A stretch of DNA of 64,000 nt from Escherichia phage vB-Eco-KMB23. This document shows positions 52,185 through 61,772 of the stretch, piece by piece (position 1 is the stretch's first letter; the number at the start of each line of letters is the position of its first letter). The notes under the pieces were generated by a model. It was not told the DNA's origin, ran no database searches, and saw nothing but the letters and a program-made list of their open reading frames with translations. The position numbers and the translations under genes are program-made. The stretch is taken from the sequence record OR525702.1. One strand, given 5' to 3'.

Positions 52185-55100
52185 ATGGCCGAGATTAAAA
52201 GAAAGTTCAGAGCAGAAGACGGTCTGGACGCAGGTGGCGATAAAATAATCAACGTAGCTTTAGCTGATCGTACCGTAGGAACTGACGGTGTTAACGTTGA
52301 TTACTTAATTCAAGAAAACACAGTTCAACAATATGATCCAACTCGTGGATATTTAAAAGATTTTGTAATCATTTATGATAACCGCTTTTGGGCTGCTATA
52401 AATGATATTCCAAAACCGGCAGGAGCTTTTAATAGCGGGCGCTGGAGAGCATTACGTACAGACGCAAACTGGATTATGGTTTCATCTGGTTCATATCAAT
52501 TAAAATCCGGTGAAGCTATTTCGGTTAATACTGCAACTGGAAATGACATCACGTTTACTTTACCATCTTCTCCAATTGATGGAGATACTATCGTTCTCCA
52601 AGATATTGGAGGAAAACCTGGAGTTAACCAAGTTTTAATTGTAGCTCCAGTACAAAGTATTGTAAACTTTAGAGGTGAACAAGTACGTTCAGTACTAATG
52701 ACTCATCCAAAGTCACAGCTAGTTTTAATTTTTAGTAATCGTCTGTGGCAAATGTATGTTGCTGATTATAGTAGAGAAGCTATAGTTGTAACACCAGCGA
52801 ATACTTATCAAGCGCAATCCAACGATTTTATCGTGCGTAGATTTACTTCTGCCGCACCGATAAATATTAAACTTCCAAGATTTGCTAATCATGGAGATAT
52901 TATTAATTTCGTCGATTTAGATAAACTAAATCCACTTTATCATACAATTGTTACTACATACGATGAAACGACTTCAGTACAAGAAGTTGGAACTCATTCC
53001 ATTGAAGGCCGTACATCGATTGACGGTTTCTTGATGTTTGATGATAATGAGAAATTGTGGAGACTGTTTGACGGGGATAGTAAAGCACGTTTACGCATTA
53101 TAACGACTAATTCTAATATTCGTCCAAACGAAGAAGTTATGGTATTTGGTGCGAATAACGGAACAACCCAAACAATTGAGCTTCAGCTTCCTACTGATAT
53201 TTCTGTTGGTGATACTGTTAAAATTTCCATGAATTACATGAGAAAAGGACAAACAGTTAAAATCAAAGCTGCCGGTGAAGATAAAATTGCTTCTTCAGTT
53301 CAATTGCTGCAATTCCCAAAACGCTCAGAATATCCGCCTGAAGCTGAATGGGTTACAGTCCAAGAATTAGTTTTTAATGGTGAAACTAATTATGTTCCAG
53401 TTTTACAGCTCGCTTATATTGAAGATTCTGATGGAAAATACTGGGTTGTACAGCAAAATGTTCCAACTGTAGAAAGAGTAGATTCTTTAAATGATTCTAC
53501 TAGAGCAAGATTAGGCGTAATTGCTTTAGCTACACAAGCTCAAGCTAATGTCGATTTAGAAAATTCTCCACAAAAAGAATTAGCAATTACTCCAGAAACG
53601 TTAGCTAATCGTACTGCTACAGAAACTCGCAGAGGTATTGCAAGAATAGCAACTACCGCTCAAGTAAATCAGAACACCACATTCTCTTTTGCAGATGACC
53701 TTATCATTACTCCTAAAAAGCTGAATGAAAGAACTGCTACAGAAACTCGTAGAGGTGTTGCTGAAATTGCTACGCAGCAAGAAACTAATACAGGTACTGA
53801 TGATACTACAATCATCACTCCTAAAAAGCTTCAAGCTCGCCAAGGTTCTGAATCATTATCTGGTATTGTAACTTTTGTATCTACTGCAGGTGCTACTCCA
53901 GCTTCTAGTCGTGAATTAAATGGTACGAATGTTTATAATAAAAACACTAATAATTTAGTTGTTTCACCTAAAGCTTTGGATCAGTATAAAGCTACTCCAA
54001 CACAGCAAGGTGCAGTAATTTTAGCAGTTGAAAGTGAAGTAATTGCTGGACAAAGTCAGGAAGGATGGGCAAATGCTGTTGTAACGCCAGAAACGTTACA
54101 TAAAAAGACATCAACTGATGGAAGAATTGGTTTAATTGAAATTGCTACACAAAGTGAAGTTAATACAGGAACTGATTATACTCGTGCAGTCACTCCTAAA
54201 ACTTTAAATGACCGTAGAGCAACTGAAAGTTTAAGTGGTATAGCTGAAATTGCTACACAAGTTGAATTCGACGCAGGCGTCGACGATACTCGTATCTCTA
54301 CACCATTAAAAATTAAAACCAGATTTAATAGTACTGATCGTACTTCTGTTGTTGCTCTATCTGGATTAGTTGAATCAGGAACTCTCTGGGACCATTATAC
54401 CCTTAATATTCTTGAAGCAAATGAGACACAGCGTGGTACACTTCGTGTAGCTACACAAGTTGAAGCTGCTGCAGGAACATTAGATAATGTTTTAATAACT
54501 CCTAAAAAGCTTTTAGGTACTAAATCTACCGAATCACAAGAAGGTGTTATTAAAGTTGCAACTCAGTCTGAAACTGTGACTGGAACGTCAGCAAATACTG
54601 CTGTATCTCCAAAAAATTTAAAATGGATTGTGCAGAGTGAACCTACCTGGGCAGCTACTACTGCGATAAGAGGTTTTGTTAAAACTTCATCTGGTTCAAT
54701 TACATTCGTTGGTAATGATACAGTCGGTTCTACCCAAGATTTAGAACTGTATGAGAAAAATAGCTATGCGGTATCACCATATGAATTAAACCGTGTATTA
54801 GCAAATTATTTGCCGTTAAAAGCAAAAGCTGCTGATACAAATTTATTGGATGGTCTAGATTCATCTCAGTTCATTCGTAGGGATATTGCACAGACGGTTA
54901 ATGGTTCACTAACCTTAACTCAACAAACGAATCTGAGTGCCCCTCTTGTATCATCTAGTACTGCTACGTTTGGCGGATCAGTTTCGGCAAACAGCACATT
55001 AACTATTTCTAATACTGGAACGGCAACTCGTCTGATTTTTGAGAAAGGACCTCAAACTGGAACTAACCCAGTACAGACGATGACTATCAGAGTTTGGGGA

Positions 55101-56054
55101 AATCAGTTTGGTGGCGGTTCAGATACAACACGTTCTACTGTATTTGAAGTTGGTGATGAAACGTCTAATCACTTTTATTCTCAACGCAATAAAGCTGGGA
55201 ATATAACGTTTAGTATCAATGGTACTGTAATGCCAATAAATGTTAATGCTTCGGGTTCTTTGAATGCGAACGGCGTTGCAACATTTGGTAGTTCAGTTAC
55301 AGCCAATGGCGAATTCATCAGCAAGTCTGCAAATGCTTTCAGAGCAATAAATGGCGACTATGGATTCTTTATTCGCAATGATGCTGCTAACACCTATTTT
55401 ATGCTTACTGCATCGGGTGATCAGACTGGCGGATTTAATGGATTACGTCCTTTAGCTATTAATAATGCATCTGGTCAAGTAACTATTGGTGAAAGCTTAA
55501 TCATTGCCAAAGGTGCTACTATAAATTCAGGTGGTTTAACTGTTAACTCGAGAATTCGTTCTCAGGGCACTAAAACCTCTGACTTATATACCCGTGCGCC
55601 AACATCTGATACCGTAGGATTCTGGTCAATTGATATTAATGATTCAGCTACTTATAACCAGTTCCCAGGTTATTTTAAAATGGTTGAAAAAACTAATGAA
55701 GTGACTGGGCTTCCGTACCTAGAACGTGGCGAAGAAGTTAAATCTCCTGGTACACTGACACAGTTTGGTAACACACTTGATTCGCTTTACCAAGATTGGA
55801 TTACTTATCCAACGACACCAGAAGCGCGTACCACTCGCTGGACACGTACATGGCAGAAAACCAAAAACTCTTGGTCAAGTTTTGTTCAGGTATTTGACGG
55901 AGGTAACCCTCCTCAACCATCTGATATCGGTGCTTTACCATCTGATAATGCTACAATGGGGAATCTTACTATTCGTGATTTCTTACGAATTGGTAATGTT
56001 CGCATTATTCCTGACCCAGTGAATAAAACTGTTAAATTTGAATGGGTTGAATAA
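52185..56054 (+). CDS. 34: long tail fibre proximal subunit
   Basis: 1289 aa, matches T4 gp34. Confidence 0.9.
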   Translation: MAEIKRKFRAEDGLDAGGDKIINVALADRTVGTDGVNVDYLIQENTVQQYDPTRGYLKDFVIIYDNRFWAAINDIPKPAGAFNSGRWRALRTDANWIMVSSGSYQLKSGEAISVNTATGNDITFTLPSSPIDGDTIVLQDIGGKPGVNQVLIVAPVQSIVNFRGEQVRSVLMTHPKSQLVLIFSNRLWQMYVADYSREAIVVTPANTYQAQSNDFIVRRFTSAAPINIKLPRFANHGDIINFVDLDKLNPLYHTIVTTYDETTSVQEVGTHSIEGRTSIDGFLMFDDNEKLWRLFDGDSKARLRIITTNSNIRPNEEVMVFGANNGTTQTIELQLPTDISVGDTVKISMNYMRKGQTVKIKAAGEDKIASSVQLLQFPKRSEYPPEAEWVTVQELVFNGETNYVPVLQLAYIEDSDGKYWVVQQNVPTVERVDSLNDSTRARLGVIALATQAQANVDLENSPQKELAITPETLANRTATETRRGIARIATTAQVNQNTTFSFADDLIITPKKLNERTATETRRGVAEIATQQETNTGTDDTTIITPKKLQARQGSESLSGIVTFVSTAGATPASSRELNGTNVYNKNTNNLVVSPKALDQYKATPTQQGAVILAVESEVIAGQSQEGWANAVVTPETLHKKTSTDGRIGLIEIATQSEVNTGTDYTRAVTPKTLNDRRATESLSGIAEIATQVEFDAGVDDTRISTPLKIKTRFNSTDRTSVVALSGLVESGTLWDHYTLNILEANETQRGTLRVATQVEAAAGTLDNVLITPKKLLGTKSTESQEGVIKVATQSETVTGTSANTAVSPKNLKWIVQSEPTWAATTAIRGFVKTSSGSITFVGNDTVGSTQDLELYEKNSYAVSPYELNRVLANYLPLKAKAADTNLLDGLDSSQFIRRDIAQTVNGSLTLTQQTNLSAPLVSSSTATFGGSVSANSTLTISNTGTATRLIFEKGPQTGTNPVQTMTIRVWGNQFGGGSDTTRSTVFEVGDETSNHFYSQRNKAGNITFSINGTVMPINVNASGSLNANGVATFGSSVTANGEFISKSANAFRAINGDYGFFIRNDAANTYFMLTASGDQTGGFNGLRPLAINNASGQVTIGESLIIAKGATINSGGLTVNSRIRSQGTKTSDLYTRAPTSDTVGFWSIDINDSATYNQFPGYFKMVEKTNEVTGLPYLERGEEVKSPGTLTQFGNTLDSLYQDWITYPTTPEARTTRWTRTWQKTKNSWSSFVQVFDGGNPPQPSDIGALPSDNATMGNLTIRDFLRIGNVRIIPDPVNKTVKFEWVE

Positions 56055-57914: not shown

Positions 57915-60900
57915 ATGGCTACTTTAAAACAAATACAATTTAAAAGAAGCAAAACTGCAGGTCAACGTCCTGCTGCTTCAGTATTAGCCGAAGGTGAATT
58001 GGCTATAAACTTAAAAGATAGAACAATTTTTACTAAAGACGATTCAGGAAATATCATTGACTTAAGCATTACCGCTGGCGGTAATATCAGTGGTAATATC
58101 ACTCAAACTGGTGATTATACACAGACTGGAAAATTTAATTTAATTGGCCCGCAGATTATAGCAAGTGGTGGATATATTGAGTTTAATTATCGTACTACTG
58201 GAAGTGGGGCTTGGTCCGGTCAACACACTGCAAAGGCTCCAATTTTTGTAGATTTAAGCTCAGCTACTTCCACATCTGAATATAATCCTATAATTAAACA
58301 GCGCTTTAAAGATGGAACTTTTTCATTAGGTACTTTAGTTTCTGAAGGTTCGTTGAAGATTCATTATATTGATGAAACTGGTCAATCTAAATATTGGACA
58401 TTTGCGCGCTCAGGTAATTTTCAAGTTGATTCTGGTAATTTATTAGTATCTGGTGGGTATTTAGTCGCTCAGAGTAATATTGAAACAAGAACAGGTTCTT
58501 TGATTGGTCCATCTGTTGTAACTAAAAATATTTCATTTGATACGAAAGCGTTTGGACAATACGATTCGCAGTCATTAGTTCAATATGTTTATCCTGGAAC
58601 TGGTGAAACAAACGGAATTAATTACCTTCGTAAATTCCGTGCAAAATCTGGTGGTACGATTTATCATGAATTAGCTTCTGCACAAACCGGAAAAAGTGAT
58701 GAACTGTCTTGGTGGACCGGTAATACAGCCGTTAATAAACAAATGGGCCTTCGCAATGATGGGTCTTTAGTGTTGCGACGCTCACTCGCAATTGGTACAA
58801 TTACAACAGATGAAAACATTAATAATTACGGCTCCACTGGAGCAATGGGTGAATGCTATATAGTCATTGGAGATGCCGCAACTGGTGTATCATATAAAAG
58901 ATCTGGTGTATATGATTTAGTTGCTAATGGTCTTTCTATCGCGTCTATTACTCCTGACAGTTTCCGTAGTACTCGTAAAGCATTATTTGGACGTTCAGAA
59001 GACCAAGGCGGAACATGGATTATGCCTGGAACGAACGCTGCTTTTTTATCGGTTCAAACACAGGCTGATGAAAACTCTGCTGGAGATGGTCAAACCCACA
59101 TTGGATATAACTCTGGCGGTAAAATGAACCACTATTTCCGTGGTAAAGGAAAAACTAATATTAATACTCAAGAAGGCATGGAAGTTAACCCAGGTATTTT
59201 GAAATTGGTAACTGGCTCTAATAATGTAATGTTTTATGCTGATGGCGGTATTACATCTGTTAAGCAGCTTTCAATATATAACGGCATATATTTAGCAGCT
59301 AATAATTCTACTGCTGGGCTAACATTCGCTCCAACTACTACAATTGATGGCACTAAGCAAATTTTGTGGGAAGGCGGTACTCGTGCTGGTCAGAATAAAA
59401 GCTATGTAACTGTTAAAGCATGGGGTAATTCATTTAACGCATCTGGCGATCGTAATCGTGAAACGGTTTTTGAAGTAGCTGATGGACAAGGATATTATTT
59501 TTATTCACAGCGTGTGGCTCCAAGTGGCTCTGAAACTACTGGGCCTGTTGTAACCCAGTTCAATGGACAAGTTAATGCTAGAGGAAGTATTATTACTGAC
59601 GGAAGTTTTAAAGTTAATGGATTAAGCACTTTAGTCGGTAATGTTACCATGTCTAATGGTTTGTTTGTCCAAGGTGGTTCTTCTATTACTGGACAAGTAA
59701 AAATTGGTGGAACTGCTGATGCATTAAGAATTTGGAATGCCGAATACGGTGCTATTTTCCGTCGCTCAGAAACAGCATTACATATTATCCCGACTCCTAA
59801 AGATGCCGGTGAAAGTGGTGGAATAAGTAATCTCCGCCCACTTAGTATTAGTCTTAATAATGGTATGGTACAAATGCGCCATTCTGTTACGTTAGGCGAT
59901 GATGGCGCTGGCGGTAATATGATTACTGTGGACAACGATACCAAACTTGTTGTTGTTACTAGTAATAGTCGCATTTCTCCTAATTACCGTATGCAGGTAG
60001 GACAAGCAGCTTATATTGATGCTGAATGTACTGACACAGTTCGCCCGGCTGGTGCAGGGTCTTTTGCTTCACAAAATAATGAAAACGTTCGTGCTCCATT
60101 CTATATGAATATTAATCGTACAGATACAAGTACTTACGTTCCTATTTTGAAACAACGATATGTCCAAGGAAACAGTTGTTATTCTCTGGGAACTCTAATT
60201 AACGGCGGTAACTTCAGAGTTCATTATCATGAAGGCGGCGATGGCGGTTCGACTGGCGCTATTATAAAGGATTTAGGTTGGGAATTTAACAAAAATGGTG
60301 ATTTTATATCTCCTAAGCGTGTTTCTGCTGGGGGTTCAGTTTATTTAGGTACAGACGGCAATATTACAGGTGGTTCTGGCAATTTTGCTAATTTAAACAG
60401 TACAATTGAATCACTTAAAACCGATATTGTATCGAGTTACCCAATCGGTGCTCCTATTCCATGGCCAACGGATACTCCTCCTGACGGTTACGCTATTATG
60501 GAAGGTCAGACTTTTGATAAGTCTGCATACCCAAAATTGGCTATGGCTTACCCATCTGGCGTAATTCCAGATATGCGCGGGCAAACTATTAAAGGTAAAC
60601 CAAGTGGTCGAGCTGTATTAAGCGCAGAAGCCGATGGTGTTAAGGCTCATAGCCATAGTGCATCGGCTTCAAGTACTGACTTGGGTACTAAAACTACGTC
60701 GAGTTTTGATTATGGTACTAAGACGACAAGTAGCTTTGACTATGGCACTAAGACTAGCAATACCACAGGTAACCACTCTCATACTGTAAGCGGTACTACG
60801 AGTTCTGCTGGTGCACACCAACATGCGCGCTCAGGTCCTCAGTTACAAGCCGGCATACCCAATAACATATTCTATGACGGATATAATAGTGTAGGTGCAA

Positions 60901-61193
60901 ACGCCAACGCTAAAATCACCGGATCTGTGAGCGGTGCTACTGCAGGGTCGAATATAGCCAAAACTTCTTCAGACGGTGCTCATACTCATACTTGGTCTGG
61001 TACTACAAGCACTACAGGTAACCATGCTCACACAGTAGGTATCGGTGCTCATACCCATACTGTAGGTATCGGTGCTCATACCCACACGGTAGCAATTGGC
61101 TCGCATGGTCATACTATCACTGTAAATAGTACAGGTAATACAGAAAACACGGTTAAAAACATTGCTTTTAACTATATCGTTCGTTTAGCATAA
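57915..61193 (+). CDS. 37: long tail fibre distal subunit with receptor-binding tip
   Basis: 1092 aa; C-terminus ...[31 protein letters not shown] with HxH repeats as in T4 gp37. Confidence 0.9.
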
Positions 61194-61220
61194 GGAGAGG
61201 GGCTTCGGCCCCTTCTGAAT
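61192..61220 (+). promoter_or_regulatory. gene 38 split ribosome-binding site (SD, hairpin, AUG)
   Basis: AAGGAGAGG followed by GGGGC-ttcg-GCCCC hairpin and ATG 61221. Confidence 0.6.
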
Positions 61221-61772
61221 ATGAAAATATATCATTATTATTTTGACACTAAAGAATTTTACAAAGAAGAAAATTACAAACCGGTTAAAGGACTCGGTCT
61301 TCCTGCTCATTCAACAATTAAAAAACCTTTAGAACCTAAAGAAGGATACGCAGTTGTATTTGATGAACGTACTCAAGATTGGATTTATGAAGAAGACCAT
61401 CGCGGCAAACGAGCATGGACTTTTAATAAAGAAGAAATTTTTATAAGTGACATTGGAAGCCCGGTTGGTATAACCTTTGATGAGCCCGGCGAATTTGATA
61501 TATGGACTGATGACGGTTGGAAAGAAGACGAAACATATAAACGCGTTTTAATTCGCAATAGAAAAATTGAAGAATTATACAAAGAATTCCAAGTTTTAAA
61601 TAATATGATTGAAGCTTCTGTCGCGAATAAAAAGGAAAAATTCTATTATAAAAACCTTAAGCGGTTCTTTGCTCTTTTAGAAAAGCATGAGCATTTAGGT
61701 GGTGAATTCCCTTCATGGCCTGAAAAAGAACGGAAACCTTGGTATAAGCGTTTATTCAAGCATTACGTATAA
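61221..61772 (+). CDS. 38: tail fibre assembly chaperone (T4-type gp38)
   Basis: 183 aa, matches T4 gp38. Confidence 0.9.
   Translation: MKIYHYYFDTKEFYKEENYKPVKGLGLPAHSTIKKPLEPKEGYAVVFDERTQDWIYEEDHRGKRAWTFNKEEIFISDIGSPVGITFDEPGEFDIWTDDGWKEDETYKRVLIRNRKIEELYKEFQVLNNMIEASVANKKEKFYYKNLKRFFALLEKHEHLGGEFPSWPEKERKPWYKRLFKHYV

Follow-up and report, generated by a model that had tools for sequence, protein, structure and literature searches.

Gene 37 of Escherichia phage vB-Eco-KMB23 (KMB23; OR525702.1) lies on the plus strand at 57915..61193 of the window, by which we mean the whole 64-kb stretch of DNA that was analysed. [quoted passage not shown] The locus has the T4 gene order: gp34 (52185..56054), gp35, gp36, gp37, gp38, the holin and asiA. 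Gene 38 (61221..61772, plus strand, 183 aa) is directly downstream of gene 37, a position that matches the T4 annotation. Its product is the T4-type tail-fibre assembly chaperone, identical to T4 gp38 in 182 of 183 aa, and is not an adhesin of the T2 type. KMB23 gene 37 shares 95% nt identity over its full length with the gp37 genes of teqhad, FelixPlatter and other Tequatrovirus phages. Elsewhere, stretches of the window show about 97% identity to T4-like phages, Sf22 among them.

The gp37 of KMB23 and that of T4 are 67% identical in amino acid sequence. An initial annotation of this DNA had identified the gene as a T4-type gp37 and had set its length of 1092 aa against 1026 aa in T4. Both statements hold: the T4 protein from NC_000866 has 1026 aa, the C-terminal part of KMB23 gp37 is homologous to the T4 structure described below, and the gp38 chaperone is found downstream. 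KMB23 gp37 thus has 66 residues more than its T4 counterpart, of which 19 come from repeats and 18 from the tip. The other extra residues fall in the N-terminal and middle portions of gp37, near aa 100-200 and 600-700. The repeats sit in the 3' end of the ORF and are the subject of what follows.

The C-terminal 278 residues of KMB23 gp37 match the structure of the T4 gp37 tip (PDB 2XGF; Bartual et al. 2010) with a phmmer E-value of 1.7e-96, query residues 15-292 aligning to chain residues 2-242. The gaps in this alignment fall exactly at the extra GTK...FDY and VGIGAHTHT units, the two repeats described below. In T4, the knob is made of residues 811-881 and 1010-1026, the stem of 882-931 and 960-1009, and the tip of 932-959 (PMC9603124). 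The chain goes out to the tip and then back, forming in the trimer a six-stranded needle in which seven irons are bound by His-x-His motifs (PMC6957217; PMC12609058). In this fold, the irons sit on the stem axis and are coordinated octahedrally by histidines of three chains. We verified the T4 residue numbering against ten residues named in PMC6957217.

KMB23 gp37 has the same knob-stem-tip layout, with a collar domain and with His-x-His motifs on both strands; all its parts are encoded on the plus strand. The first part of the knob, or collar, domain is at 60432..60644 (aa 840-910, equivalent to T4 811-881), as placed by Pfam, the 2XGF alignment and the published T4 boundaries (PMC9603124). 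The Pfam Collar family (PF07484) is recognized at aa 845-892, before the needle, with 44 bits against a cut-off of 24. The outgoing (ascending) stem strand is at 60645..60824 (aa 911-970, aligning to T4 882-931) and has His-x-His motifs at 912/914, 954/956 and 968/970. The tip or head subdomain, the variable part that contacts the receptor, is at 60825..60962 (aa 971-1016) and aligns to T4 932-959. The returning (descending) stem strand follows at 60963..61139 (aa 1017-1075, aligning to T4 960-1009), with His-x-His motifs at 1023/1025, 1037/1039, 1046/1048, 1055/1057 and 1064/1066. The chain finally returns into the knob at 61140..61193 (aa 1076-1092 and the stop codon; equivalent to T4 1010-1026). 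In total there are eight His-x-His motifs, three before the tip and five after it, versus seven in T4.

The relationship to T4 is uneven along this region. The last 78 nt of the gene are 100% identical to T4, and the C-terminal 26 aa of the two proteins are the same. In contrast, the tips are unrelated in sequence: the KMB23 tip has 46 aa vs. 28 aa in T4 (18 aa longer), and nt identity drops to 36%. The Pfam model for the phage fibre repeat (PF03335, Phage_fiber) matches aa 949-962 with 17 bits, below its cut-off of 20. We attribute the low score to the shortness of the model, which has 14 positions, rather than to a different fold. Many database homologues have a precomputed PF03335 domain, and most database homologues have PF07484 together with PF03335.

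The two repeats occupy opposite strands of the stem, as judged by TRF, by translation and by comparison with T4. The ascending array, at 60684..60773 on the plus strand (aa 924-953, on the outgoing strand), consists of three 10-aa units with the pattern G-T-K-x-x-x-x-F-D-Y, the third of which is degenerate. The first two units (60684-60713 and 60714-60743; aa 924-943) encode an identical 10-aa peptide. They differ at eight of 30 nt, all of the differences being synonymous and including a TCG/AGT serine switch. Chance falls far short of explaining an exact tandem repeat of 10 aa in which every one of eight nt differences is synonymous. The third unit (60744-60773) is in frame and was not counted in the initial annotation; with it, there are three units per strand. 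TRF reports this array at 60677-60756 with a period of 30, 2.7 copies and a score of 83. The descending array, at 61035..61115 on the plus strand (aa 1041-1067, on the returning strand), has three 9-aa units with the pattern V-x-I-G-x-H-x-H-T. The first two (61035-61061 and 61062-61088) each read VGIGAHTHT, with two synonymous differences in 27 nt, and the third (61089-61115) encodes VAIGSHGHT. Here TRF finds a period of 27 at 61029-61092 with a score of 107. Translation and TRF therefore bear out what had been reported of the two arrays, namely the 10-aa peptide repeated at 60684..60743 with eight synonymous nt differences and the three 27-nt units at 61035..61115. The repeats had also been placed in the receptor-binding needle. 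This is right insofar as they lie in the His-rich needle; they are, however, confined to its stem, and the receptor-contacting tip (aa 971-1016) is single-copy.

The all-synonymous divergence of the ascending copies points to purifying selection on both. In an alignment of 45 sequences, little or no variation is seen at the unit residues F, D, Y, G, T and K. Throughout the family, the ascending copies typically differ from each other at about eight nt, so that the duplication is old. Old copies with a nearly invariant peptide argue against a fast-switching repeat. The two arrays differ in their potential for slippage: the ascending units, eight of 30 nt apart, are not prone to it, whereas the two near-identical VGIGAHTHT units could in principle be lost in this way.

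The T4 protein has one exact FDY unit (two ascending units if the degenerate one is included) and two 9-aa units. KMB23 therefore has one more of each of the two repeats, and its close relatives have the same counts as KMB23. Two FDY units are found in lambda Stf, not in T4 gp37.

Two contacts published for T4 gp37, G921-F970 and G964-H929 (PMC6957217), set an antiparallel register of i+j ~1892. In this register, the T4 ascending unit 895-904 lies against 988-997, a segment that coincides exactly with one His-x-His period of the descending strand. If the outgoing and returning units do pair physically, their numbers should match. The pairing rule set out below follows naturally from the published T4 structure. 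The literature searched contained no statement of it; the nearest is a remark in a 2025 cryo-EM paper that longer needles may have correspondingly more His-x-His motifs (PMC12609058).

We measured His-x-His spacing in 202 distinct homologous C-terminal domains. The sources were three independent retrievals, of 120 large-database proteins, 80 viral contigs and 146 further cluster representatives (50%-identity clusters, from 150 listed), together with 20 phage records. Spacing was used instead of unit counts by regular expression, which missed degenerate units, such as FSIGSHGHT in lambda. In these domains, the first outgoing His-x-His gap equals 12+10k, where k, the number of returning 9-residue periods, ranges from 1 to 6. 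The gap/k pairs found were 22/1, 32/2, 41-42/3, 52/4, 62/5 and 73/6. KMB23 gp37 has k=3, the commonest state, and T4 gp37 has k=2. A 14-residue unit with its own His-x-His motif is likewise present in equal number on each strand (0/0, 1/1 or 2/2). Across the surveyed domains, no relation was seen between tip length and stem length. The two repeats, treated as independent in the initial annotation, are thus not so, their counts covarying almost perfectly across the family.

Five exceptions to the rule were raised by the parser, one of which is real. The other four are parsing quirks: in P0007 and P0050, a 15- or 16-residue unit replaces the 14-residue unit; P0229 is without one ascending His-x-His motif; and Yen_X1 has a spacing of 31/9,8. 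In the real exception, the metagenome contig L003 (IMGVR_UViG_3300030021_000020), three outgoing units are combined with two returning ones. Its nearest cultured relatives, TH54 and X55190, have the extra 9 aa. The L003 mismatch is therefore likely, although not proven, to be either an assembly collapse of near-identical 27-nt units or a rare deletion. A mismatch may thus be tolerated.

Pairs of phages that share a tip are informative about how the counts change. JK45 (long stem) and PhiZZ23 (short stem), the clearest case, have the same tip. Across the final ~680 columns of their alignment identity is 98%, with 610 matching columns, 12 mismatches and only two gaps, one of 30 nt and one of 27 nt. 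Of the 12 mismatches, nine lie close together immediately upstream of the 30-nt gap, and the 27-nt gap is clean. These are two separate events in one lineage. Three further same-tip pairs have changed in step: STYP1/SEN5, slur14/P0062 and P0082/P0015. Altogether, at least four tip families are found on both stem lengths, and in them both counts have always changed together. The 14-residue unit behaves similarly: P0046 and P0054 are one such unit apart on each strand. We regard co-selection of the two counts for strand register as well supported by these comparisons.

The explanation that we favour, and hold to be very probable, is that the two repeats together make up one structural module of the gp37 needle stem, each contributing one half. 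Each 9-residue V-x-I-G-x-H-x-H-T returning unit would give one His-x-His ring and hence one metal site. The outgoing unit of 10 residues, G-T-K-x-x-x-x-F-D-Y, has no histidine and would run beside it. A module would have to be gained or lost on both strands together, as the strands would otherwise lose register. KMB23 gp37 would then have three modules with eight His-x-His motifs, and T4 two modules with seven. We predict that the KMB23 stem exceeds that of T4 by one module (~2.5-3 nm, estimated from 9-10 residues per strand) and holds an additional iron site. Copy number then sets the length of the needle and probably also the number of its iron sites, whereas the choice of receptor would be made by the separate, variable tip subdomain. 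A PDB sequence search returned only 2XGF and an unrelated collar match, and no three-module needle structure. An AlphaFold2 monomer of aa 838-1092, built on the 45-sequence alignment, had a pLDDT of 51.8 and a pTM of 0.23, and its strand register was unreadable. What we say of unit pairing, of an eighth iron site and of added length is therefore inferred from the comparisons above. A point that speaks against the explanation is that each module would have 10 residues going out but 9 returning.

The initial annotation had proposed changes in copy number as a plausible host-range mechanism. Put as an alternative to the paired module, the repeats would be a copy-number-variable device in which slippage or unequal recombination alters which bacteria the fibre binds. 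Copy number does differ, both between T4 and KMB23 and between JK45 and PhiZZ23, of which the former was isolated on E. coli and the latter on Citrobacter rodentium. The units, however, are in the stem, outside the tip residues of T4 (932-959) to which LPS and OmpC binding maps by mutagenesis (PMC6957217; PMC9603124). FelixPlatter (Bas40), with a k=3 stem, depends on OmpC for infection (PMC8594841), and OmpC is thus common to this phage and T4 (k=2). As the same tip is found on both stem lengths, and as T4 and FelixPlatter both use OmpC, copy number is not a determinant of receptor choice. The tips of KMB23 and FelixPlatter differ by 4 aa, and from this near-identity OmpC is probably the receptor of KMB23 also. 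Slippage is possible at the VGIGAHTHT units, identical at 25 of 27 nt, one of which L003 is without; but it is disfavoured at the ascending copies, which are 27% diverged in nt and stem from an old duplication. Moreover, ESh18, FelixPlatter, teqdroes, AndreasVesalius, LH01 and ATK47 all share the KMB23 counts. Variation in count is seen only among more distant alleles, and a one-sided change almost never. Laboratory duplications provide a precedent: to go by its title and by its citation in PMC6957217 and PMC3157838, Tetart 1996 describes tandem duplications in the C-terminal adhesin region of g37, rich in G-x-H-x-H motifs, that widen the host range of T4. Unlike such laboratory duplications, the KMB23 repeats are ancient, conserved stem units of wild phages. 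The laboratory duplications reportedly span the hypervariable tip segment, including a G938V change, and not the stem units. What survives of the host-range proposal is that KMB23 differs from T4 by one copy of each repeat; a role of the repeats in receptor choice does not, and we consider the device itself quite improbable.

Two other explanations concern the history of the DNA more than the function of the protein. The repeat DNA ("His boxes") may serve mainly as short homology for the swapping of tip cassettes, a role compatible with a structural one. Recombination at conserved motifs has been proposed for T-even adhesins (PMC3157838, citing Tetart 1996, 1998), and the mosaic identity of KMB23 to T4 (97% just before the ascending units, 36% in the tip, 100% at the very end) is of the kind expected from it. 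The same C-terminal module is also found on T4-like, lambda-like, P2-like, Nonagvirus and Felixounavirus fibres, and the mismatches of the PhiZZ23/JK45 pair, clustered as they are upstream of the 30-nt indel, resemble a conversion patch. Swapping by itself leaves unexplained why the peptide is conserved beyond the DNA (eight of eight differences synonymous) and why the counts are equal on both strands, and crossover points have been mapped for one pair only. We keep this as a possible, though not the preferred, account. The covariation, on the other hand, could largely stem from a few ancestral backbones with swapped tips and not from repeated co-selection: stem length would have been fixed once in each of a few lineages, and the counts, ~300 nt apart, would travel together. 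Many of the 202 sequences are indeed related, most of them belong to the k=2 and k=3 classes, and an exchange of the tip only would leave both flanks of the recipient in place. Yet one rule covers all six length classes, and the 14-residue units follow it independently. JK45 and PhiZZ23 share tip and flanks at 98% identity but have two separate indels, and at least four tip families include both stem lengths. Shared ancestry as the whole explanation is therefore, in our judgment, unlikely.

The KMB23 feature is an already known and common allele of a known fold, and its repeats belong to the His-x-His fibre repeats already described. Over the C-terminal 210 aa, the gp37 proteins of KMB23 and of Shigella phage ESh18 are 100% identical. 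FelixPlatter gp37 has the same spacing (42,14,55,14,9,9,9) but differs from KMB23 in the N-terminal aa 150-210. Within the teqdroes group (FelixPlatter/Bas40, teqdroes and AndreasVesalius), the C-terminal domain is without substantive difference from that of KMB23, and in the teqdroes record a repeat_region is already annotated over the 27-nt units. Reference gp37 sequences with the KMB23 repeat counts thus exist (ESh18, FelixPlatter, teqdroes and AndreasVesalius), although T4 is not among them. The allele itself matters little, its C-terminal domain being identical to that of a deposited phage. More distantly, HK630 has a lambda-type Stf whose stem likewise consists of three modules with eight His-x-His motifs, at a spacing of 42,14,48,14,9,9,9. 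Lambda Stf differs from KMB23 gp37 in having another tip, another N-terminal shaft, and the Tfa chaperone instead of gp38.

The pairing rule has a wider use. It offers a simple way to predict, from sequence only, how long a needle is and how many iron sites it holds, which bears on claims of iron carried by phage tails. In the engineering of fibres, the 10-aa outgoing and the 9-aa returning units should be shifted together when a T4- or lambda-type fibre tip is shortened, lengthened or grafted, as natural sequences almost never break the pairing; the 14-aa units should be treated likewise. The length of the needle may also affect how far the tip reaches through surface polysaccharide. We would go further only tentatively, to the view that the needle of T4- and lambda-type fibre tips is a register-locked ladder of paired modules, in a series of 1-6, whose length and iron load are selectable. 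Needle length, if this were true, would tune the reach of the tip through O-antigen or capsule independently of receptor specificity.

Close to the 3' end of g37, identity to T4 is sharply mosaic inside 400 nt (window 60825..61193). The receptor-contacting tip of gp37 (aa 971-1016) shows 36% identity to its T4 counterpart, whereas the final 78 nt of the gene are 100% identical. The similarity is also high in g38, the downstream gene for the T4-type tail-fibre assembly chaperone, at 97% of nucleotides and 182/183 amino acids. Such a pattern suggests that the tip may have been exchanged as a cassette, or alternatively that the chaperone imposes a strong constraint. The N-terminal part of gp37 also varies: aa 101-200 (58215..58514, + strand) show just 17% identity to T4 and carry 24 additional residues, and most of the differences from the close relative FelixPlatter fall in aa 153-208. 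Judged by sequence, the aa 101-200 block is a second variable cassette, located in the shaft and unrelated to the tip.

The g37-g38 junction has a feature of its own. Between the g37 stop (61193) and the g38 start (61221), folding revealed a strong hairpin, GGGGC-UUCG-GCCCC (61199..61216), contained in AGGAGAGGGGCUUCGGCCCCUUCU. For the 61185-61230 fold, the minimum free energy is -15.8 kcal/mol, with z = -2.5 relative to shuffles. The purine-rich stretch AAGGAGAG is a likely ribosome-binding site, and it is in part taken up by the hairpin fold. The hairpin could serve either to stabilize the transcript or to regulate translation of g38.

The needle module, a 10-aa outgoing (FDY) unit with a 9-aa returning V-x-I-G-x-H-x-H-T unit, is found in other fibres as well. 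The Felixounavirus/Mooglevirus fibres of VpaE1 (L096) and Sf14 (L097) carry the same FDY and V-x-I-G-x-H-x-H units. The VpaE1 and Sf14 fibres differ from the T4/lambda type in the knob and in the C-terminus (His-x-His spacing 11,34,14,tip,14,9,9,13, with a 32-residue tail). Therefore, the module is in use beyond the T4/lambda knob context.

Three protein database representatives lie at the extremes in module number. P0239 combines a single module with two 14-residue units on each strand; P0126 has five modules. About six modules with irregular spacers are present in one protein, which is probably P0222. Among natural needles, these three are candidates for the shortest and the longest. Mismatched units, three outgoing and two returning, were seen in L003 alone among the 202 sequences compared (metagenome contig IMGVR_UViG_3300030021_000020, locus 1501-2331). 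The missing unit is present in its closest cultured relatives; either the repeat collapsed in assembly or the needle is mismatched in nature.

Some fibre-tip entries (P0033, P0041, P0064, P0067, and P0070) are named in their sources as terminase, tape measure protein, ClpP-like protease or fatty-acid transporter; such names seem to stem from wrong annotation or from gene calls that were fused.
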